Shown in pieces: positions 194 to 32,448 of a stretch of 32,448 nt of DNA. Where the stretch lies: sequence record NC_048164.1; one strand, given 5' to 3'. Within the stretch, counting starts at the first letter, position 1; the number at the start of each line of letters is the position of its first letter. The translations under genes were made by a program, and so were the position numbers. Source of the DNA: Escherichia phage HZP2. Under the pieces are notes generated by a model, which was not told the origin of the DNA, did no database searches, and saw nothing but the letters and a program-made list of their open reading frames with translations.

Positions 194-598
194 ATGATAC
201 GTGTTTATGAGAAGTTTAAATGGGCCAAGGGTGAGCGCCTACAGGATGGGCGCTTCATAGCGAACATTGAGGACTCTACCGGCGAATCGTGGTATGACAT
301 TATGGTCAAACTCGATGAACTAGGAGAGGATCGCTGGGTAATTGGCACTCAACAATCTGGTTTCGTTTCGTGGGCCACAAACGGAAGCGTGAACGCTTCG
401 GCTCTTCCTGTAGATGGTGGCGATGTTATCGTGATTGACTCCATCCCTGAGGACATGGAGAAAGACTTCCGGTACTGGTGGTGGGATGGTTCGCAATTCT
501 TCAAGCAGGATAATGTCAAGTCAGAACAGAAGGAGCGCACAAAGGAGGACATTATGGCTGACCTCCTGAAACTTCAAGAAGAACTCAAGACACTATAA
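194..598 (+). CDS. hypothetical protein, possible tail-fibre assembly chaperone (Tfa-like); no T7 counterpart
   Basis: ATG at 194 preceded by AAGGAGA RBS; 134 aa. T7 has no gene between 17 and 17.5. The C-terminal segment (FRYWWWDGSQFFKQDNVKSEQKERTKEDIMADLL) loosely resembles the W-x-(D/N)G-x-W ... acidic/coiled C-terminal motif of lambda Tfa / P2 gpG-type chaperones; recognised by eye only. Confidence 0.5.
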   Translation: MIRVYEKFKWAKGERLQDGRFIANIEDSTGESWYDIMVKLDELGEDRWVIGTQQSGFVSWATNGSVNASALPVDGGDVIVIDSIPEDMEKDFRYWWWDGSQFFKQDNVKSEQKERTKEDIMADLLKLQEELKTL

Positions 599-3393: not shown

Positions 3394-3837
3394 ATGATAA
3401 GCAAGAAGAAGTATGTTATCGATAAGGAGACTGGTTGCTGGAACTTTAGGGGATGTAAGACGAAGACTGGTTATGGTCGCATTCGTGTGAACGGAGTCCA
3501 TTGGATGGCCCACAGGTATTCCCTGAGTTGTCATCTAGGCAGACCGATAGCTGACGGAATGGTTGTGATGCACCTATGTGATAATCCTTCATGTGTTAAC
3601 CCTGAGCACCTTAAGGAAGGGACTCAGAAGGAGAACATAGAGGACTGCATCTCAAAAGGTCGTGCAACTAAGTCCACAGGTAAACGTGATGCAACTAAGA
3701 GAGACCCTAGCGAGGAACGTAAGGCTATAGTGATTCGAAGATACCATAAAGGCTGGACCGCAACGTCCATAGCGAGATACCATAAGCTCTCTGTGGCGTG
3801 GGTAAAGAGGGTCATTGAGGATTACCTAAGTGATTGA
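3394..3837 (+). CDS. free-standing HNH homing endonuclease (HNH motif plus C-terminal helix-turn-helix)
   Basis: 147 aa; GCWNF..GYGRIRVNG..HR....VVMHLCDNPSCVNPEHL is an HNH_3-type motif, same architecture as T7 gp7.7/gp5.3. Strong RBS TAAGGAGGT 7 nt upstream. T7 has no gene at this position. Confidence 0.85.
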   Translation: MISKKKYVIDKETGCWNFRGCKTKTGYGRIRVNGVHWMAHRYSLSCHLGRPIADGMVVMHLCDNPSCVNPEHLKEGTQKENIEDCISKGRATKSTGKRDATKRDPSEERKAIVIRRYHKGWTATSIARYHKLSVAWVKRVIEDYLSD

Positions 3838-4955: not shown

Positions 4956-4985
4956 TTGACAACACGCAGTAACATGCAGTAAGAT
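4956..4985 (+). promoter_or_regulatory. host sigma70 early promoter A2
   Basis: TTGACA - 18 bp - TAAGAT; context ACGAAAAACAAGCATTGACAACA matches T7 A2. Confidence 0.8.
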
Positions 4986-5079
4986 ACACAGCGCTAGGTA
5001 ACACTAGCAGCGCCAACCGGACGAACGGTGTCTTCTAGGTGACTCAAGCGCACCACGGCACACAAAGCAAACAAAACGG

Positions 5080-5108
5080 TTGACAACATGCAGTAAACAC
5101 GGTACGAT
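5080..5108 (+). promoter_or_regulatory. host sigma70 early promoter A3
   Basis: TTGACA - 17 bp - TACGAT; context AACAAAACGGTTGACAACATG..GGTACGATGTAC matches T7 A3. Confidence 0.8.
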
Positions 5109-5226
5109 GTACTACAAGCAGTAAGGGCGTAGGGATAGGAACCGAGAAACCTGCCCGTGACCCGCCAAGGATAAGGCACTAGCCATGAGTCGAATTCGGT
5201 CACTCATCGCATAAAAGAATAACAGG

Positions 5227-5255
5227 TTGACAGCCTCCTTTAAAAGCTGTAATAT
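5227..5255 (+). promoter_or_regulatory. additional host sigma70-type promoter (fourth in the tandem array)
   Basis: TTGACA - 17 bp (GCCTCCTTTAAAAGCTG) - TAATAT; sits ~147 bp downstream of A3, continuing the ~125-bp spacing of A1/A2/A3. Its downstream context (GTACCCACGAAATGACGGAACAGTGAGTCACCACACTGAAAGG) corresponds to the sequence that follows A3 in T7. Confidence 0.6.
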
Positions 5256-5443
5256 GTACCCACGAAATGACGGAACAGTGAGTCACCACACTGAAAGGTG
5301 ATGCGGTCTAACGAAACCTGACCAAAGACGCTCTTTAACAATCTGGTAAACGGCTCTTGAGTGTACACACGTAGCGGATAACTCAAGGGTATCGCAAGAT
5401 GCCCTTTATGATATCCACTAACAACTCTATGAGGTAACACACA

Positions 5444-5806
5444 ATGGCTATGTCTAACATGACTTATAACAACGTTTTCGATCACGCTTACGAAATGCTG
5501 AAAGAAAATATCCGTTATGATGACATTCGTGACACTGATGGTCTTGGGGACGCAATCCACATGGCAGCCGATAGCGCCGTTCCGCACTATTACAGCGACA
5601 TTTTCAGTGTAATGGCAAGCGAGGGCATTGACCTTGAGTTCGAGGATTCTGGTCTTATGCCGGACACCAAGGACGTAATCCGTATCCTGCAAGCACGTAT
5701 CTATGAGCAATTAACGATTGACCTCTGGGAAGACGCTGAGGACTTACTGGACGAGTATCTCGAGGAAGTCGAAGAGTCAGAAGAGTACGAGGAGGACGAA
5801 GAGTAA
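5444..5806 (+). CDS. ocr: Ocr (overcome classical restriction), DNA-mimic anti-restriction protein (T7 gp0.3 homolog)
   Basis: 120 aa [32 protein letters not shown]...acidic C-terminal tail ([14 protein letters not shown]); near-identical to T7 gp0.3. Confidence 0.95.
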
Positions 5807-5961
5807 TGGCTAACAACACCACGCAATACGGTCTGACCGCTCAAACTGTACTGTTTTATAGTGACATGGTGCGCTGTGGTTTTGACTGGTCGCTAGCAAT
5901 GGAACACCTTAAGGAACTGTACGAAAACAACAAGGCAATAGCCTTGGAGTCTGCTGAGTGA
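5806..5961 (+). CDS. 0.4: gp0.4 homolog (in T7 an FtsZ-inhibiting early protein)
   Basis: 51 aa [51 protein letters not shown]; ATG overlaps the ocr stop (TAATG); matches T7 gp0.4. Confidence 0.85.
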   Translation: MANNTTQYGLTAQTVLFYSDMVRCGFDWSLAMEHLKELYENNKAIALESAE

Positions 5962-6005
5962 TAGGCTCAAGGTCGCTCAATACGAGTGGCCTTTATGATT
6001 ATCAT
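5959..6005 (+). promoter_or_regulatory. RNase III processing site (R0.5-like)
   Basis: TGATAGGCTCAAGGTCGCTCAATACGAGTGGCCTTTATGATTATCA, conserved T7 RNase III site architecture. Confidence 0.6.
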
Positions 6006-6023
6006 TCTGAAACAGGTGTACCT

Positions 6024-6467
6024 ATGTCACAACAAGCTAAAACTTGCATAGCGTGCGGTGAGTTCAAGCCGTTGACGCAATACTACAAGAATGCCTCATC
6101 CCTTGATGGTCACATTGGGACGTGTAAGGCATGTAAGGCCAAACAACAAAGGGAACGAAGGGCACGGAAAAGCAACGCAGAGAGATACAAAAAGGAGGCA
6201 GCACGCCGCCGCGCCAATCATCTGCGAGCAAACTACGGGATAGAAGAGGAAACCTATCGCAAGATGTACGAAGAACAACATGGGGTCTGCGCCATATGCA
6301 AACAACCTGAGAGTATTGAGGGCAGGAGTCTCTGTGTGGACCATTCACATATTACAGGAGAGGTACGTGGGCTTCTATGCTCCAATTGCAACAGAGGGAT
6401 TGGCTTACTCAAGGACTCCCCAGAGTTGGTACGAAACGCTTTTCACTACTTAACCGGTAAACTATAG
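6024..6467 (+). CDS. endonuclease VII-family (HNH-like) nuclease with N-terminal Cys-rich zinc-ribbon-like region; occupies the position of T7 gene 0.5
   Basis: 147 aa; C-terminal YEEQHGVCAICKQPE..LCVDHSHITGEVRGLLCSNCNRGIG matches the T4 endonuclease VII (gp49) N-terminal catalytic motif (C-x2-C ... DH-x-H ... VRGLLC-x2-CN). N-terminus has CIACG...CKACK plus an Arg/Lys-rich linker. Start set at the ATG at 6024 (ORF-track start 5958 is a GTG extension across the RNase III site). Confidence 0.85.
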   Translation: MSQQAKTCIACGEFKPLTQYYKNASSLDGHIGTCKACKAKQQRERRARKSNAERYKKEAARRRANHLRANYGIEEETYRKMYEEQHGVCAICKQPESIEGRSLCVDHSHITGEVRGLLCSNCNRGIGLLKDSPELVRNAFHYLTGKL

Positions 6468-6710
6468 GATGCACATTATGAAACACTACGTTATGCCTAT
6501 CCACACCAAGAACGGCGTAACCATGAGGTAGCTGTAGATGTACTAGGAAGAACCAATAACGCTATGCTCTGGGTCAATATGCTCTCTGGGGACTTTAAGT
6601 CGCTTGAGGAGCGAATCGCGCTGCGCTGGCGTAATGCTGACCGCATGGCTATCGCTAATGGTCTTCCGCTAAACATTGATAAGCAACTTGACGCAATGCT
6701 AATGGGCTGA
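6468..6710 (+). pseudogene. remnant of the gene 0.6 / 0.7 (protein kinase) region: 0.6 start fused out of frame to the last ~60 codons of 0.7
   Basis: ATGCACATTATGAAACACTACGTTATGCCTATCCACAC (gp0.6 N-terminus MKHYVMPIH) runs into GAACGGCGTAACCATGAGGTAGCTGTAGATGTACTAGG... which encodes the T7 gp0.7 C-terminus ([24 protein letters not shown]...[12 protein letters not shown]) in a different frame; the kinase domain is absent. Confidence 0.75.
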
Positions 6711-6755
6711 TAGTCTTATCTTACAGGTCATCTGCGGGTGGCCTGAATAGATACG
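6708..6755 (+). promoter_or_regulatory. RNase III processing site (R1-like) upstream of gene 1
   Basis: TGATAGTCTTATCTTACAGGTCATCTGCGGGTGGCCTGAATAG, matches the T7 R1 region. Confidence 0.55.
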
Positions 6756-6779
6756 ATTCCTGACCGAAAGAGGTACAAA

Positions 6780-9431
6780 ATGAGCACGATTAACATCGCT
6801 AAGAACGATTTCTCTGACATCGAACTAGCCGCTATCCCGTTCAATACTCTGGCTGACCACTACGGTGAGCGTCTAGCTCGCGAGCAGTTGGCCCTTGAGC
6901 ATGAGTCTTACGAAATGGGTGAAGCACGTTTCCGCAAGATGTTTGAGCGTCAACTCAAGGCCGGTGAGGTTGCAGACAACGCTGCCGCTAAGCCTCTTAT
7001 TACTACCCTGCTCCCCAAGATGATTGCACGCATCAACGATTGGTTTGAGGAAGTGAAAGCTAAGCGTGGCAAACGTCCAACCGCTTTCCAGTTCCTGCAG
7101 GGAATCAAGCCGGAATCTGTAGCGTATATCACCATTAAGACTACTCTTGCTTGCCTAACGAGCGTGGACAATACAACCGTTCAGGCTGTAGCAAGCGCCA
7201 TCGGACGGGCTATCGAGGAAGAAGCTCGCTTCGGTAGAATCCGTGACCTAGAAGCTAAGCACTTCAAGAAAAACGTTGAGGAACAACTAAACAAGCGCGT
7301 AGGGCACGTCTATAAGAAGGCATTCATGCAGGTAGTCGAGGCTGATATGCTCTCTAAGGGTCTACTAGGTGGCGAGGCGTGGTCTTCATGGCACAAGGAA
7401 GACTCCATTCACGTAGGTGTGCGCTGCATTGAGATGCTCATTGAGTCCACCGGAATGGTTAGCCTGCACCGCCAAAATGCTGGCGTAGTGGGCCAAGACT
7501 CTGAGACTATCGAGCTGGCACACGAATACGCTGAGGCTATCGCAACCCGCGCTGGGGCACTGGCTGGCATCTCTCCGATGTATCAGCCTTGCATAGTCCC
7601 TCCTAAGCCTTGGACTGGTGTAACTGGTGGTGGCTACTGGGCCAACGGTCGCCGCCCTCTGGTACTGGTACGCACTCACAGCAAGAAGGCACTGATGCGC
7701 TACGAAGATGTTTACATGCCTGAGGTATACAAGGCGATCAACATTGCGCAAAACACCGCATGGAAAATCAACAAGAAAGTCCTAGCAGTCGCCAACGTGA
7801 TAACCAAGTGGAAGCACTGCCCAGTCGAGGACATCCCTTCGATTGAGCGTGAAGAACTCCCGATGAAACCGGAAGACATCGACACGAATCCTGAGGCTCT
7901 CACCGCTTGGAAACGTGCTGCCGCTGCTGTGTACCGTAAAGACAAGGCACGCAAGTCTCGCCGCATCAGCCTTGAGTTCATGCTTGAGCAAGCCAATAAG
8001 TTTGCGAACCGTAAGGCCATCTGGTTCCCTTACAACATGGACTGGCGTGGCCGTGTGTACGCTGTGTCAATGTTTAATCCGCAAGGTAACGACATGACCA
8101 AAGGTCTGCTGACACTGGCTAAAGGTAAACCAATCGGCAAGGAAGGATTTTACTGGCTGAAAATCCACGGGGCCAACTGCGCGGGGGTCGATAAGGTTCC
8201 ATTCCCTGAGCGCATCAAGTTCATTGAGGACAACCACGATAATATCATGGCGTGCGCTAAGTCTCCACTTGAAAACACTTGGTGGGCTGAGCAAGATTCT
8301 CCGTTCTGCTTCCTCGCGTTCTGCTTTGAGTACGCTGGGGTACAGCACCACGGATTGAGCTACAACTGCTCGCTGCCGCTGGCGTTCGATGGGTCTTGCT
8401 CTGGCATCCAGCACTTCTCCGCAATGCTCCGCGACGAGGTAGGTGGTCGTGCTGTTAACCTACTGCCTAGCGAAACCGTTCAGGACATCTACGGGATTGT
8501 TGCCAAGAAAGTCAACGAGATTCTGCAAGAGGATGCAATCAACGGGACCGATAACGAAGTGATTACCGTGACCGATGAGAACACGGGCGAAATCTCTGAG
8601 AAAATCAAGCTGGGTACTAAAGCACTGGCTGGTCAATGGTTGGCCTACGGTGTGACCCGTAGCGTCACTAAACGTTCAGTCATGACGCTGGCCTATGGTT
8701 CCAAAGAGTTCGGCTTCCGTCAGCAAGTTCTGGAGGATACCATACAGCCAGCTATTGATTCAGGCAAAGGTCTGATGTTCACCCAACCCAATCAGGCCGC
8801 TGGGTACATGGCTAAGCTGATTTGGGAATCTGTGAGCGTTACCGTAGTGGCTGCTGTAGAGGCCATGAACTGGCTCAAGTCTGCCGCTAAGTTGTTGGCT
8901 GCTGAGGTCAAAGATAAGAAGACTGGTGAGATTCTTCGCAAGCGTTGCGCGGTGTATTGGGTAACTCCTGATGGCTTCCCTGTGTGGCAGGAATACAAGA
9001 AGCCTATTCAGACTCGCTTGAACCTGATGTTCCTCGGTCAGTTCCGCTTACAGCCAACCATTAACACTAACAAGGATAGTGAGATTGATGCACACAAACA
9101 GGAGTCCGGTATTGCCCCTAACTTTGTACACAGCCAAGACGGTAGCCACCTGCGTAAGACTGTAGTGTGGGCACATGAGAAGTACGGAATCGAATCGTTT
9201 GCATTGATTCACGACTCCTTCGGGACCATTCCGGCTGACGCTGCCAACCTATTCAAGGCTGTTCGTGAGACTATGGTTGACACCTACGAGTCCTGCGATG
9301 TACTTGCAGACTTCTACAACCAGTTCGCTGACCAGTTACATGAGTCTCAACTTGATAAAATGCCAGCACTTCCGGCTAAAGGTAGCTTGAATTTACGAGA
9401 CATCTTAGAGTCAGACTTCGCGTTTGCGTAA
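6780..9431 (+). CDS. 1: single-subunit DNA-directed RNA polymerase (T7 gp1 homolog)
   Basis: 883 aa, near-identical to T7 RNAP over its whole length (MSTINIAKNDFSDIELAAIPFNTLADHYGERLAREQLALEHESYEMGEARF ... HDSFGT ... DFAFA). Confidence 0.98.
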   Translation: MSTINIAKNDFSDIELAAIPFNTLADHYGERLAREQLALEHESYEMGEARFRKMFERQLKAGEVADNAAAKPLITTLLPKMIARINDWFEEVKAKRGKRPTAFQFLQGIKPESVAYITIKTTLACLTSVDNTTVQAVASAIGRAIEEEARFGRIRDLEAKHFKKNVEEQLNKRVGHVYKKAFMQVVEADMLSKGLLGGEAWSSWHKEDSIHVGVRCIEMLIESTGMVSLHRQNAGVVGQDSETIELAHEYAEAIATRAGALAGISPMYQPCIVPPKPWTGVTGGGYWANGRRPLVLVRTHSKKALMRYEDVYMPEVYKAINIAQNTAWKINKKVLAVANVITKWKHCPVEDIPSIEREELPMKPEDIDTNPEALTAWKRAAAAVYRKDKARKSRRISLEFMLEQANKFANRKAIWFPYNMDWRGRVYAVSMFNPQGNDMTKGLLTLAKGKPIGKEGFYWLKIHGANCAGVDKVPFPERIKFIEDNHDNIMACAKSPLENTWWAEQDSPFCFLAFCFEYAGVQHHGLSYNCSLPLAFDGSCSGIQHFSAMLRDEVGGRAVNLLPSETVQDIYGIVAKKVNEILQEDAINGTDNEVITVTDENTGEISEKIKLGTKALAGQWLAYGVTRSVTKRSVMTLAYGSKEFGFRQQVLEDTIQPAIDSGKGLMFTQPNQAAGYMAKLIWESVSVTVVAAVEAMNWLKSAAKLLAAEVKDKKTGEILRKRCAVYWVTPDGFPVWQEYKKPIQTRLNLMFLGQFRLQPTINTNKDSEIDAHKQESGIAPNFVHSQDGSHLRKTVVWAHEKYGIESFALIHDSFGTIPADAANLFKAVRETMVDTYESCDVLADFYNQFADQLHESQLDKMPALPAKGSLNLRDILESDFAFA

Positions 9432-12934: not shown

Positions 12935-13390
12935 GTGGCTGGCGCATACGCTGCGCGTGGAATCAGAAAGGTCGGGACATTCCGTTCCGGCCTAGAAGAT
13001 AAAGTCTCTAAGCAGCTAGAGGGTAAGGGTATCAAGTTCGACTATGAACTGTGGAAAATCCCTTACGTTGTCCCTGCGAGTAACCATGTCTACACTCCAG
13101 ACTTCCTGCTGCCTAACGGAATCTTTATTGAAACCAAAGGTTTATGGGAGAGTGACGACCGAAAGAAACACTTACTGATTCGCGAACAGTTTCCCGAACT
13201 GGACATCCGTCTGGTATTCTCAAGCTCACGCACCAAGCTGTACAAAGGGTCTCCGACCAGTTACGGTGAGTGGTGCGAGAAGCACGGCATACTGTTTGCT
13301 GACAAATTAATTCCGGTAGAATGGCTCAAAGAACCTAAAAAGGAGGTGCCATTTGACAAGTTAAAGCAATCTAAGGGAGGAAAGAAATAA
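12935..13390 (+). CDS. 3: endonuclease I, Holliday-junction resolvase (T7 gp3 homolog)
   Basis: 151 aa ..AGAYAARGIRKVGTFRSGLEDKVSKQLEGKGIKFDYELWKIPYVVPASNHVYTPDFLLPNGIFIETKG... matches T7 gp3. Apparent GTG start at 12935 immediately after the gp2.5 stop, with GGAGA ~8 nt upstream. Confidence 0.9.
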   Translation: MAGAYAARGIRKVGTFRSGLEDKVSKQLEGKGIKFDYELWKIPYVVPASNHVYTPDFLLPNGIFIETKGLWESDDRKKHLLIREQFPELDIRLVFSSSRTKLYKGSPTSYGEWCEKHGILFADKLIPVEWLKEPKKEVPFDKLKQSKGGKK

Positions 13391-13905: not shown

Positions 13906-16066
<2,161 letters not shown>

Positions 16067-17113: not shown

Positions 17114-19072
17114 ATGATCGTTTCTGACATCGAAGCTAACGCCCTCTTAGAGAGCGTCACTAAGTTCCACTGCGGGGTTATCTACGACTACTCCACCGCT
17201 GAGTACGTAAGCTACCGTCCGAGTGACTTCGGTGCGTATCTGGATGCGCTGGAAGCCGAGGTTGCACGAGGCGGTCTTATTGTGTTCCACAACGGTCACA
17301 AGTATGACGTTCCAGCATTGACCAAACTGGCTAAGTTACAGCTTAACCGTGAGTTCCACCTACCCCGTGAGAACTGTATTGACACACTTGTGTTGTCACG
17401 CTTGATTCACTCAAACCTGAAAGACACCGATATGGGTCTTCTGCGTTCCGGTAAACTTCCGGGTAAACGCTTTGGGTCTCACGCTTTGGAGGCGTGGGGC
17501 TATCGCTTAGGTGAAATGAAGGGTGAATACAAAGATGACTTTAAGCGTATGCTTGAAGAACAAGGTGAAGAATACGTTGACGGCATGGAGTGGTGGAACT
17601 TCAACGAAGAGATGATGGCCTATAACGTTCAGGACGTTGTGGTCACTAAGGCTCTCCTTGAGAAGCTACTCTCTGACAAACATTACTTCCCTCCTGAGAT
17701 TGACTTTACGGACGTAGGCTACTCTACGTTCTGGTCAGAATCCCTTGAGGCCGTTGATGTTGAACATCGTGCTGCGTGGCTACTCGCTAAGCAAGAGCGA
17801 AATGGATTCCCATTTGACACGAAAGCAATCGAAGAGTTGTACGTAGAGTTGGCTGCCCGCCGCTCTGAGTTGCTCCGCAAATTGACCGAAACGTTCGGCT
17901 CGTGGTATCAGCCTAAGGGTGGCACAGAAATGTTCTGCCATCCGAGGACTGGTAAGCCATTACCTAAATATCCTCGCATTAAGACACCTAAAGTTGGTGG
18001 TATCTTTAAGAAGCCTAAGAACAAGGCACAGCGAGAGGGCCGTGAGCCTTGTGAACTGGATACCCGTGAATACGTTGCTGGTGCTCCATATACTCCTGTA
18101 GAGCACGTAGTGTTTAACCCTTCGTCCCGTGACCACATTCAGAAGAAACTTCAAGAGGCTGGATGGGTCCCCACGAAGTACACCGATAAGGGTGCGCCTG
18201 TGGTGGACGATGAGGTACTCGAAGGAGTACGTGTAGATGACCCTGAGAAGCAAGCCGCTATCGACCTTATTAAAGAATACCTGATGATTCAGAAGAGAAT
18301 CGGTCAGTCTGCTGAGGGAGACAAGGCATGGCTTCGTTACGTTGCTGAGGATGGTAAAATTCATGGTTCTGTTAACCCTAATGGAGCAGTTACGGGTCGT
18401 GCTACCCATGCGTTCCCAAACCTTGCGCAAATTCCGGGTGTACGTTCTCCTTATGGTGAGCAGTGCCGCGCTGCTTTTGGCGCTGAACATCACTTAGATG
18501 GACTTACAGGTAAGCCTTGGGTTCAGGCTGGTATAGACGCCTCCGGTCTGGAGTTACGTTGCTTGGCCCACTTTATGGCTCGCTTTGATAACGGTGAGTA
18601 CGCTCACGAGATTCTTAATGGTGACATTCACACTAAGAATCAGATAGCTGCCGAATTGCCTACCCGTGATAACGCCAAGACGTTCATCTATGGGTTCCTT
18701 TATGGTGCTGGTGATGAGAAGATTGGGCAGATTGTTGGTGCTGGCAAAGAACGCGGTAAGGAACTCAAGAAGAAATTCCTTGAGAACACTCCAGCGATTG
18801 CTGCACTCCGAGAGTCTATCCAACAGACACTCGTTGAGTCATCTCAGTGGGTAGCTGGTGAACAGCAAGTCAAGTGGAAACGCCGCTGGATTAAAGGACT
18901 TGATGGGCGCAAAGTCCATGTCCGTAGTCCTCATGCTGCCCTGAACACCTTGCTGCAATCTGCTGGTGCTCTTATCTGCAAACTGTGGATTATCAAGACC
19001 GAAGAGATGCTCTTAGAGAAAGGCTTGAAGCATGGCTGGGATGGGGACTTTGCGTACATGGCATGGGTGCAT
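17114..19072 (+). CDS. 5: DNA polymerase (T7 gp5 homolog), exon 1 (residues 1-653)
   Basis: [36 protein letters not shown]... near-identical to T7 gp5 up to ..[13 protein letters not shown]. The frame then runs into non-homologous KLSHCAH-stop, while the missing 51 C-terminal residues of gp5 are encoded at 19674-19829. Confidence 0.95.
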
Positions 19073-19673
19073 AAACTATCTCATTGTGCACATTAAATCT
19101 GGTGAACTCGGTGAAACCCTTCTAGGGCAATACCGAGCCAAGCCATAGGGAGGATATATGAGAGGCAAGAAGTTAATCCTTGCGACCACAGAGAGTGGTT
19201 GTATCATCCCTACGTCACACAAACTTAATACTGATGGTTATTTCCGAAAGAAGACGAACGGTGTCCTAGAGATGTATCACAGGACAGTCTGGAAGGAACA
19301 CTACGGAGATATACCAGAAGGGTATGAAGTAGACCACAAGTGTAGGAACAGGGCGTGCTGTAACGTAGAGCACCTCCAGTTATTAGAAGGTTCTGAGCAT
19401 ACAGTCAAGACAAACAGGGAACGATACGCTGACCGTAAAGAGTCCGCGAAGGAACACTGGTTGGAGACTGGATGTACAGGAACACACTTAGGTGAGAAGT
19501 TTGGTGTAACGTTCTCTGCCGCTTGTAAGTGGATTAGAGAGTGGAAGGCGTAGAGACTATCCGAAAGGAGTAGGGCCGAGGGTGAGATTCCCTCGTTACC
19601 CGAAGCGCCAGACAGTCAACTCAAAGGCTGATGATATAGTCCGACACTCCTAGCAATAGGAGAATACAGAAAG
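19073..19673 (+). mobile_element. group I self-splicing intron (601 nt) interrupting DNA polymerase gene 5
   Basis: Exon 1 ends in U (..GUGCAU) and an internal guide-like GTGCAC at 19086-19091 can pair with it with a terminal U.G wobble (P1). P7-like pairing GACTAT (19555-19560) / ATAGTC (19636-19641) with a GAAA tetraloop hairpin between. Intron ends in G (..CAGAAAG) directly before exon 2 GATGAGATT. Joining 19072 to 19674 restores the exact T7 gp5 sequence WVH/DEIQVGC. Confidence 0.85.
19158..19553 (+). CDS. intron-encoded HNH homing endonuclease
   Basis: 131 aa; EGYEVDHKCRNRACCNVEHLQL (HNH motif) with C-terminal helix-turn-helix-like segment; GGGAGG RBS; in a different frame from gene 5; stop TAG lies just before the P7 element. 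Confidence 0.85.
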   Translation: MRGKKLILATTESGCIIPTSHKLNTDGYFRKKTNGVLEMYHRTVWKEHYGDIPEGYEVDHKCRNRACCNVEHLQLLEGSEHTVKTNRERYADRKESAKEHWLETGCTGTHLGEKFGVTFSAACKWIREWKA

Positions 19674-19829
19674 GATGAGATTCAGGTAGGTTGTCGTACC
19701 GAAGAGATTGCTCAGGTGGTCATTGAGACTGCACAGGAAGCGATGCGCTGGGTAGGAGACCACTGGAACTTCCGGTGTCTTCTGGATACCGAAGGTAAGA
19801 TGGGTCCTAATTGGGCTGTATGTCACTAA
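19674..19829 (+). CDS. 5: DNA polymerase (T7 gp5 homolog), exon 2 (C-terminal 51 residues)
   Basis: DEIQVGCRTEEIAQVVIETAQEAMRWVGDHWNFRCLLDTEGKMGPNWAVCH-stop, equals the T7 gp5 C-terminus; no start codon of its own (hence absent from the ORF track). Exon 1 plus exon 2 = 704 aa, the length of T7 gp5. Confidence 0.9.
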   Translation, partial: DEIQVGCRTEEIAQVVIETAQEAMRWVGDHWNFRCLLDTEGKMGPNWAVCH

Positions 19830-30939: not shown

Positions 30940-32448
30940 ATGAGTAAAATTGAATCTGCCCTTCAAGCAGCACAACCGGGACTCTCTCGGTTACGTAGTG
31001 GCGCTGGTGGTATGGGCTATCGTGCAGCAACCACTCAGGCTGAACAGCCAAGGTCAAGCCTATTGGATACCATTGGTCGATTCGCTAAGGCCGGAGCCGA
31101 CATGTATGCTGCTAAGGAGCAACGTGCTCGTGACCTAGCTGACGAACGCTCTAATGAGATTATCCGTAAGTTGACTCCTGAGGAACGCAGAGAGGCACTG
31201 AATAACGGGTCCCTCCTGATACAGGATGACCCATACGCTATGGAAGCACTTAAAGTCAAGACTGGTCGTAACGCCGCATATCTGCTTGATGATGACGTCA
31301 TGCAGAAGATCAGAGCGGGTGTCTTCACTACTCGCGAAGAGATGGAACAGTATCGCCATAGTCGTCTTCAAGAGGGCGCTAAGGCATACGCTGAGCAGTT
31401 CGGTATCGACCCTAATGACGTTGACTATCAGCGTGGTTTCAACGAGGACATCACTGAGCGTAACATCGCACTGTATGGTGCTCACGATAGCATCTTGAGT
31501 CAACAAGCTCAGAAGGGTGCCTTGATTAACAGTAGGGTTGAACTTAACAGCGTCCTTAAAGACCCTGACATGCTTCGCCGTCCAGACTCTGCGGACTTCT
31601 TTGAGAGCTATATCTCAAACGGACTAGTTACTGGGTCGATACCAAGTGACGCTCAGGCTACACAGTTAATCAGCCAAGCGTTTAGTGACGCATCTAATCG
31701 TGCTGGTGGTGCTGACTTCTTGATGCGTGTTGGCGACAAGAAGGTAACACTCTACGGAGCCACTACGACCTATAAGGAACTCATGGGTGAGGAGCAGTGG
31801 AATGCCCTTATGGTGACAGCACAGAGAGCACAATATGACAACGATGCAAAACTGAACGAGAAGTTTCAGCTTGACGTTAACTCTGCGTTGCTTATGGATG
31901 ACCCTAGAGTTGGCTGGGAGAAGCTCCTTGGAATCAAGGCCGAGTTAGATAAGAACCAGCCGGGAGAACAAATGACACCACAGCGAGCTACTTTAATAGC
32001 TGCGCAGGAGCAACTTCGGGCTAAGATGGTTGAGTGGACTAAGAATGAGGCAAAAGCTCTTGACGAGGCTCAAAAGGCCGATAATAAGTTCAAGGTAATA
32101 GACGCTCAATACCAGAAACGCATTAACGGTGAGTGGGTATCTACAGACTTTAAGGACATGCCCACTAACGAAAATACTGGTGAGTTCAAACATAGCGATA
32201 TGGTGAACTACGCTAACAAAAAGCTGGCTGACATCGACGCTATGGACATCCCAGATGGAGCAAAGGATAGGCTTAAACTTCAATACTTGCAGTCAGACTC
32301 TAAGGATGGGCCATTCAGGACTGCAATAGGAACGATGGTTCAGGACGCAGCTCAGGAGTGGTCTTCTTCTGTGATGAACGGTAAGTTAGCAGATAAGACT
32401 CCAGCGATGGATGCCTTACGCAGAATCCGTAACGCAGACCCATACCTA
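30940..32448 (+). CDS. 15: internal virion / ejection protein C (T7 gp15 homolog), 3'-truncated by the window end
   Basis: Open frame from the ATG at 30940 to the window end (503 codons): MSKIESALQAAQPGLSRLRSGAGGMGYRAATTQAEQPRSSLLDTIGRFAKAGADMY... matches the T7 gp15 N-terminal two thirds. Absent from the ORF track because it has no stop inside the window. Confidence 0.95.
   Translation, partial: MSKIESALQAAQPGLSRLRSGAGGMGYRAATTQAEQPRSSLLDTIGRFAKAGADMYAAKEQRARDLADERSNEIIRKLTPEERREALNNGSLLIQDDPYAMEALKVKTGRNAAYLLDDDVMQKIRAGVFTTREEMEQYRHSRLQEGAKAYAEQFGIDPNDVDYQRGFNEDITERNIALYGAHDSILSQQAQKGALINSRVELNSVLKDPDMLRRPDSADFFESYISNGLVTGSIPSDAQATQLISQAFSDASNRAGGADFLMRVGDKKVTLYGATTTYKELMGEEQWNALMVTAQRAQYDNDAKLNEKFQLDVNSALLMDDPRVGWEKLLGIKAELDKNQPGEQMTPQRATLIAAQEQLRAKMVEWTKNEAKALDEAQKADNKFKVIDAQYQKRINGEWVSTDFKDMPTNENTGEFKHSDMVNYANKKLADIDAMDIPDGAKDRLKLQYLQSDSKDGPFRTAIGTMVQDAAQEWSSSVMNGKLADKTPAMDALRRIRNADPYL

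Follow-up and report, generated by a model that had tools for sequence, protein, structure and literature searches.

An Endonuclease VII-motif nuclease gene and a repeat-bounded deletion of the gene 0.7 kinase in the early region of Escherichia phage HZP2

The DHHRN homing endonucleases, with F-CphI as type member, are defined by the Endonuclease VII catalytic motif, which consists of D-H-x-H, a later arginine and an asparagine beyond the second cysteine pair, with CX2-4C and CX2C as zinc ligands (Fang et al. 2018; PMC6083498). Proteins carrying the motif at the N-terminus form a resolvase group and those carrying it at the C-terminus an endonuclease group, and the podoviruses of the latter encode T7 endonuclease I as well (PMC6083498). 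Gene 0.7 of T7 encodes a protein with a kinase domain (residues 1–242) and a shut-off (SO) domain (residues 243–359; PMC13645617). The gene is dispensable (PMC5389539, PMC2680503), its product is deleterious in rich media, and 0.7 deletions are common on serial transfer (PMC2680503). Here we report an analysis of positions 5,962 to 6,779 of Escherichia phage HZP2 (NC_048164.1; MK542821), a T7-like phage isolated from the wastewater of a pig farm; the window comprises this record in full (32,448 bp). The nearest genome in the phage collection is that of HZ2R8 (NC_047923), which comes from the same study and is ~94% identical. The HZP2 stretch contains a nuclease gene (6024–6467) and lacks the gene 0.7 kinase. 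We read it, with a probability of roughly 0.82, as two separate and ordinary features, a homing-type nuclease gene and a repeat-mediated deletion of the kinase gene, accompanied by a further 319-bp difference from HZ2R8.

The nuclease gene begins with ATG, five bases after an AGGTG Shine-Dalgarno sequence (6014–6018), and ends with a TAG codon (6465–6467). Judged from its sequence, the 147-aa product is classed as a free-standing HNH-type nuclease of the Endonuclease VII-motif (DHHRN) family. It matches the Pfam family Endonuclease_7 (PF02945) with an E-value of 1.5e-24 and a score of 86 bits against a cut-off of 23.6. An exact-protein look-up in the contig index returned no match, and the identical protein (100%), recorded at NCBI as 'endonuclease VII [Escherichia phage HZP2]', surfaced only in the homology search. 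The N-terminus forms a four-cysteine zinc ribbon (C8, C11, C34, C37) followed by a basic helical linker, and the C-terminus a beta-beta-alpha-metal domain with C89, C92, D106, H107, H109, R115, C119, C122 and N123. The CX2C-DHxH-R-CX2C-N signature is complete, and every catalytic and zinc-binding residue is kept. In an alignment of 47 homologues, C34, C37, C89, C92, D106, H107, H109, R115, G116, L118, C119, C122, N123 and G127 are invariant, and C8 and C11 are nearly so. The zinc ribbon and the basic helices presumably serve DNA binding. An initial annotation of this DNA had assigned an Endonuclease VII catalytic motif and a cysteine-rich, basic N-terminus to this open reading frame (ORF), and both assignments are borne out.

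In a sequence search of the PDB, the T4 endonuclease VII catalytic core aligned with residues 75–131 and Hpy99I with residues 88–143. An AlphaFold model built on the alignment had a pLDDT of 92, and a Foldseek comparison of this model with the PDB placed Hpy99I and T4 endonuclease VII at the top, followed by the HNH domains of Cas9, McrA and Cap5. The gene differs from its HZ2R8 copy by 12 synonymous and 6 non-synonymous codon changes, with a ratio of non-synonymous to synonymous substitution rates (dN/dS) of ~0.16, and is therefore maintained by selection; it is intact and under purifying selection.

The motif occupies residues 89–123 of the 147, close to the C-terminus, and 24 residues remain after N123. 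HZP2 also encodes a separate resolvase, T7 endonuclease I (Phage_endo_I; 12935–13390, E-value 6.7e-82). With a C-terminal motif and endonuclease I present, the protein therefore belongs with the endonuclease group (PMC6083498). Two other identities were considered and rejected. A Holliday-junction resolvase role does not agree with the C-terminal position of the motif, the extra domain that precedes it and the presence of endonuclease I. A diverged gp0.5 is likewise ruled out for a 147-aa Endonuclease_7 protein, and a tblastn comparison with gp0.5 was negative.

The early regions of T7-, T3- and KP32-type phages of Escherichia, Yersinia, Shigella and Klebsiella commonly contain nuclease homologues with 66–77% identity. 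The gene lies upstream of 0.6 in HZ2R8 and HZP2, between 0.6 and 0.7 in WX1, CQ615 and the Logan contig L018, directly upstream of 0.7 in two T3-like phages, Klebsiella phage 31 and ESh12, and downstream of a short kinase gene in a metagenomic contig (L017); it is absent from T7 and ESh6. A decayed copy in Teseptimavirus PDP351P2 (L014, 1048–1359) has lost its N-terminus, is fused in frame to 0.6 and is frameshifted. The patchy presence, the shifting slots and the decayed copy fit the expectation for a free-standing homing gene. Taken together with its family membership, this distribution indicates that the nuclease is most likely a selfish homing-type enzyme, an identity that the initial annotation had offered as one of two options and that now appears the probable one. 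In a mixed infection, the enzyme would cut the genomes of related phages that lack it near 0.5–0.7, by analogy with F-CphI and with the intron-encoded enzymes of T7-like relatives, and recombinational repair after the cut would copy the nuclease gene into the recipient.

The proposal that the nuclease replaces gene 0.5 is correct as a description of its position relative to T7, and a tblastn search of the HZP2 record found no T7-type gp0.5 (a hydrophobic protein of ~47–52 aa encoded between R0.5 and 0.6). It does not hold as a replacement in the strict sense, given that HZ2R8 is also without gp0.5 and that CQ615 and L018 carry the nuclease together with 0.5 and 0.6.

Several details of these homologues are recorded here for their own sake. 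The HZ2R8 nuclease gene (L001 2444–2887) is unannotated in its RefSeq record. In PDP351P2, the C-terminal half of the nuclease, from NHLKTNYGI onward, is joined to 0.6, with the frameshift right behind the DHSH motif and ahead of the second cysteine pair; an intact 0.7 gene follows. The metagenomic contig L017 (ENA contig k119_237121, 1416–3186) is a more distant, T3-like relative that encodes a 244-aa kinase without a shut-off domain; between this kinase gene and that of the RNA polymerase come, in order, a 64-aa membrane-like ORF, the homologue of the nuclease and an 83-aa ORF. The whole HZP2 region is covered in only 3 of 197 related records, and a related-locus search of viral contigs yielded, besides HZ2R8 itself, distant homologues only.

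The kinase deletion was mapped by a BLAST comparison of HZP2 5400–6900 with HZ2R8, which yielded three collinear blocks separated by two gaps on the HZ2R8 side. At the 0.6–0.7 junction, exactly 1,010 bp are missing from HZP2, and the sequence at this point is an 11-bp direct repeat, CAAGAACGGCG. HZP2 has it once and HZ2R8 twice, in gene 0.6 (L001 2927) and, 1,010 bp further on, in gene 0.7 (L001 3937). When the 2.35-kb early region of HZ2R8 was scanned for repeats, both differences between the two phages fell on repeat families, D1 and D8, and D8 (11 nt) was the longest exact dispersed repeat listed, the D1 core aside. The sizes agree, as 319 + 1,010 = 1,329 equals the difference in length between the HZ2R8 and HZP2 regions (2,830 – 1,501). 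As in other repeat-mediated early deletions, one repeat copy is kept and only non-essential early genes are affected. Slippage in replication, or recombination between the two 11-bp repeats, would have removed the 1,010 bp from an HZ2R8-like ancestor.

The segment lost comprises gene 0.6 past its first 13 codons, the kinase domain of gp0.7 in its entirety and, from the SO domain, the first half, which is basic. What remains of gene 0.6 has its first 13 residues as in HZ2R8, then crosses the junction out of frame with 0.7 and stops after 17 codons (ATG at 6478, stop at 6529–6531). Positions 6507–6707 encode the last 67 residues of gp0.7, which are 95.5% identical to residues 287–353 of HZ2R8 gp0.7 (tblastn) and correspond to about residues 293–359 of the T7 kinase, the distal half of the SO domain. 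This remnant has no start codon of its own; the first in-frame ATG, at 6564, would yield 48 aa, and Pfam found no family for this 48-aa ORF, nor for gp0.4. The 0.7 tail is best read as a dead remnant. Neither the kinase domain (1–242, with its DPV motif) nor the proximal half of the SO domain is encoded, so that the locus does not qualify as a T7 kinase gene, and a tblastn search found no kinase-like sequence elsewhere in the HZP2 record. A kinase gene in the unsequenced part of the genome was also rejected, as that part must hold genes 15–17 and leaves no room. The initial annotation had rightly described the kinase and most of the shut-off protein as missing and the start of 0.6 as joined out of frame to the end of 0.7; its estimate of ~60 remaining 0.7 codons fell short of the actual 67.

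The same annotation had remarked that the 0.7 tail follows the nuclease ORF in the same frame behind a single TAG, and had allowed that this might be coincidence. Both do begin at coordinates divisible by 3. This shared frame follows from the HZ2R8 frames and the length of the 1,010-bp deletion, with a prior chance of 1/3, and the same TAG is the ordinary nuclease stop in HZ2R8, where the frame downstream is unrelated. An amber read-through fusion of the nuclease and the 0.7 tail was rejected on both counts.

Deletions of this kind have ample precedent. T7 isolate K has 0.6 fused with distal 0.7 sequence; in isolate P, 0.7 is not annotated and only 24% of the kinase remains; the Yersinia pestis phage YpP-R has an 86-aa 0.7 remnant; and phiA1122 keeps only kinase residues 319–353. 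A 1,489-bp deletion from 0.3 to 0.7 arose at a 10-bp homology (PMC8923235), and a CRISPR escaper also carried a 0.7 deletion (PMC5389539). Both the nuclease and the 0.7 deletion are known kinds, common among T7 relatives and in passaged T7, and the remodelling of the early region described in the initial annotation is not unusual. HZP2 was isolated in LB: two liquid enrichments, each overnight, were followed by four or more rounds in which large clear plaques were picked, conditions that favour 0.7-deletion mutants. Selection may have favoured the deletion in nature or while HZP2 was being enriched and plaque-purified.

The second difference between HZP2 and HZ2R8 is a 319-bp segment with a T3-type 66-aa ORF, present in HZ2R8 between two copies of the R0.5 site and absent from HZP2. 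The two HZ2R8 copies, of 68 nt each, are 81% identical and lie 319 bp apart on either side of the 66-aa ORF (L001 2038–2424). HZP2 has a single R0.5 site, whose left half is that of HZ2R8 copy 1 and whose right flank is that of copy 2; the copies share a 21-nt exact core, GAGTGGCCTTTATGATTATCA, located at 5984–6004 (repeat family D1). In the T3-like Klebsiella phage 31, a homologue of the 66-aa ORF follows the SAMase gene. The simplest explanation would be recombination between the two R0.5-like copies, and it seems that T7-type and T3-type early modules are joined by recombination at the conserved processing hairpins.

The features of the region are listed in Table 1. The R0.5 hairpin has the two-stem fold typical of RNase III sites, in agreement with the initial annotation, which had an RNase III site retained upstream of the nuclease. 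The 0.7 tail together with R1 (6518–6779) is 98.9% identical to HZ2R8. No T7 promoter was found between 4748 and 9440 of HZP2, and immediately ahead of ocr are three strong sigma-70-like promoters (4956–5255); the stretch therefore belongs to the host-transcribed early operon. The nuclease mRNA would be made from promoters A1–A3 and excised by cuts at R0.5 and R1, with translation starting behind the gene's own Shine-Dalgarno sequence. The R0.5–R1 messenger released by RNase III has the nuclease as its sole substantial ORF.

Table 1. Features of the HZP2 early region around the nuclease gene (positions of the window).
Feature	Position	Strand	Basis
Gene 0.3 (Ocr DNA mimic), intact; left neighbour in the early operon	5444–5806	+	Pfam PF08684 ocr, E 2.3e-61
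Gene 0.4, intact, 51 aa	5806–5961	+	ORF list; product identical to HZ2R8 gp0.4; 98% nucleotide identity
R0.5 RNase III processing hairpin	5956–6007	+	Alignment with T7 R0.5; -25.5 kcal/mol, z -3.0
Nuclease gene, 147 aa	6024–6467	+	Pfam PF02945
Gene 0.6, truncated, 17 codons	6478–6531	+	gp0.6 tblastn; direct sequence reading
Deletion junction, one copy of CAAGAACGGCG	6507–6517	+	blastn break-points; flank comparison with HZ2R8
Gene 0.7 remnant, final 67 codons and stop	6507–6710	+	tblastn with HZ2R8 gp0.7; ORF list
R1 RNase III processing hairpin before gene 1	6712–6758	+	Fold, -24.4 kcal/mol, z -2.6
Gene 1, T7-type RNA polymerase, 883 aa; right neighbour	6780–9431	+	ORF list; annotated homologues

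Other explanations tie the two features to each other or to the host. A nuclease, either that of the phage itself or one from a co-infecting phage, might have broken the DNA at 0.6–0.7, with annealing at the 11-bp repeat giving the kinase deletion. The left deletion end lies only 40–50 bp past the nuclease stop codon, and the homologues occupy several slots around 0.6/0.7, plausibly the cutting zone of the family. Kong and Masker are said to have found in 1994 that double-strand breaks stimulate direct-repeat deletion in T7, which would count in favour of such an event. The same kind of deletion, however, arises readily in T7 strains without such a nuclease, HZ2R8 has the same nuclease gene and yet an intact 0.7, and beyond proximity the argument would need a cleavage target that is purely hypothetical; we consider a nuclease-induced break improbable. 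Loss of the kinase could instead have been selected by a ShosTA-like defence of the pig E. coli host, triggered by gp0.7 or its shut-off activity. It is known that gp0.7 triggers ShosTA, that T7 escapers carry 0.7 mutations and that deletions between repeats inside gene 0.7 arose under ShosTA selection (PMC11961720), and HZP2 was isolated on HZA135, a wild multidrug-resistant E. coli isolate from pig. The defence repertoire of HZA135 is, however, an assumption, the kinase is a broad anti-defence factor whose loss should usually be costly on wild strains (PMC13645617), and selection on passage in rich medium accounts for the deletion equally well. Host selection of this kind is unlikely. In a broader form, in which the adjacent nuclease family cuts 0.6–0.7 and microhomology repair recurrently destroys an anti-defence kinase, or in which the wild host senses gp0.7 and selects its loss, the linkage is again improbable; if nuclease-driven loss were true, a selfish element would shape which T7-like phages keep the T7 kinase.

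It is very improbable that the nuclease is a working accessory protein, serving in the degradation of host or competitor DNA or as a second resolvase, or acting as a TAG read-through fusion with the 0.7 tail. Purifying selection on the gene, its co-expression with anti-host early genes and the frame shared with the 0.7 tail behind one TAG could be taken in this sense. The short stretch beyond N123 nevertheless leaves no space for a C-terminal extension like that of T4 endonuclease VII, endonuclease I already serves as the phage resolvase, the distribution in close relatives is patchy with one copy decayed, and the shared frame is the arithmetic of the deletion. Also very improbable, though somewhat less so for the 319-bp segment, is an assembly artefact that conceals an HZ2R8-like early region in the true HZP2 genome. 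The record is incomplete, from the end of gene 17 to inside gene 15, and was built with Velvet, SSPACE and GapFiller, and the repeat copies at either end of the 319-bp difference have 21 nt of exact core in common; against this, the 11-bp repeat is below any usual assembly k-mer or scaffold overlap, the flanks show scattered substitutions relative to HZ2R8, as in a real, distinct genome, and early-region deletions of this type are biologically common. Some of the same facts weigh against the account preferred here, that of a homing-type nuclease gene and an independent repeat-mediated deletion. The HZP2 junctions depend on this assembly, which lacks ~7 kb, and a search for the deletion junction matched no viral contig (37-mer) and no metagenome contig (25-mer), so that the deletion allele is seen only in HZP2. 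A short-k assembly could in principle skip the 319-bp segment at the 21-nt core, and this difference may be a loss in HZP2 or a gain in HZ2R8. The homing role, for close relatives of the enzyme as for the enzyme itself, is deduced from family membership and patchy distribution.

The HZP2 record, deposited as 'complete', is circularly permuted and truncated (1–600 and 30940–32448): it starts with the last codons of the tail-fibre gene (gene 17) and ends inside gene 15. Most of gene 17, the whole of gene 16 and the remainder of gene 15 make up the missing ~7 kb. The source paper remarks only that the structural module is 'the shortest'. Positions 1–595 have no similarity to HZ2R8, and a 134-aa ORF without a Pfam match lies at 194–598 (+), between the tail-fibre end and an ORF of the size of gene 18 (808–1086).

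The record contains four HNH-type nuclease genes, including 6024–6467. Two further free-standing genes are located at 3394–3837 (+; HNH_3 and HTH_23), just after the terminase large subunit gene, and at 13906–14394 (+; HNH_3 and AP2), between the amidase/lysozyme and primase-helicase genes. The fourth, an HNH_3 endonuclease ORF (19158–19553), is carried by a group I intron (19063–19663, +) that interrupts the DNA polymerase gene (17114–19072, with the rest at ~19676–19829) after AYMAWVH; the last 59 polymerase residues are encoded downstream of the intron (19650–19826). The intron matches the full-length Rfam model Intron_gpI with an E-value of 4.5e-07 and 35.3 bits, which is below the gathering score of 50. 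In the published HZP2 table, the same region appears as a shortened polymerase and an 'endonuclease', with no intron. It is similar to the intron already described from T7-like phages (Bonocora and Shub 2004, as cited in PMC6083498).

The published ORF table agrees with the gene limits given here (ORF 10, 6024–6467; ORF 11, 6780–9431, RNA polymerase). It calls the nuclease a 'hypothetical protein', and beyond a correct annotation the finding matters little. The exact deletion end points and the absence of the kinase in HZP2 are new; the source paper is silent on the missing kinase. In phages of the T7, T3 and KP32 types, the nuclease clade clusters around genes 0.6/0.7; we know of no characterised member, and the mapping of homing sites in T7-like phages could reasonably take up this clade. 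Because the T7 kinase was recently shown to disarm many bacterial defences (PMC13645617) and at least one defence, ShosTA, is set off by gp0.7 (PMC11961720), HZP2 and HZ2R8 form a convenient natural pair, without and with the kinase, for weighing its costs against its benefits on wild E. coli.

Comparison with the closest relative places the two features in context. The HZP2 flanks are 94–98% identical to those of HZ2R8 at the nucleotide level, and the nuclease in the same slot is 95.9% identical at the amino-acid level, whereas HZ2R8 keeps full-length 0.6 and 0.7 and has the extra 66-aa ORF between its two R0.5 copies. The search for close relatives with the arrangement suggested by the initial annotation thus found the nuclease slot in HZ2R8, but not the shortened 0.6 and 0.7, and comparison with this genome supplied the deletion end points. 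Like HZP2, the T7 isolates K and P, YpP-R and phiA1122 have lost 0.7 by deletion between short direct repeats and have kept the C-terminal tail and R1. The end points differ, with the 11-bp CAAGAACGGCG in HZP2, and HZP2 is a wastewater isolate and not a long-term laboratory line. Isolate K joins 0.6 to distal 0.7; the HZP2 junction, in contrast, is out of frame and gives no fusion protein.

Among characterised enzymes, the HZP2 nuclease is close to F-CphI and the DHHRN family, with which it shares the C-terminal CX2C...DHxH...R...CX2C-N motif with all named residues (PMC6083498). Like the HZP2 nuclease, the members of the endonuclease group are free-standing and patchy in T7-like podoviruses that have a separate endonuclease I (PMC6083498). 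F-CphI and the enzyme of Yersinia phage Berlin are intron-associated, whereas the HZP2 nuclease has no intron and is known here from its sequence. T4 endonuclease VII (gp49; PDB 1EN7, 2QNC), a Holliday-junction resolvase, has the same zinc-bound beta-beta-alpha-metal core, and its D40, H41, H43, R54 and N62 and four cysteines align with those of the HZP2 protein. Its motif is, however, N-terminal (~9–70 of 157) and followed by ~95 residues that form a domain-swapped dimer, whereas the HZP2 motif is C-terminal, behind a zinc ribbon. Hpy99I (PDB 3FC3) is the best PDB match (sequence E-value 7.7e-07, Foldseek E-value 1.3e-04), and its nuclease domain is likewise C-terminal, behind an N-terminal domain. 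Hpy99I is a bacterial restriction-modification enzyme, and its superposition on the HZP2 model is poor (TM 0.24), so that the two are comparable in the catalytic domain only.

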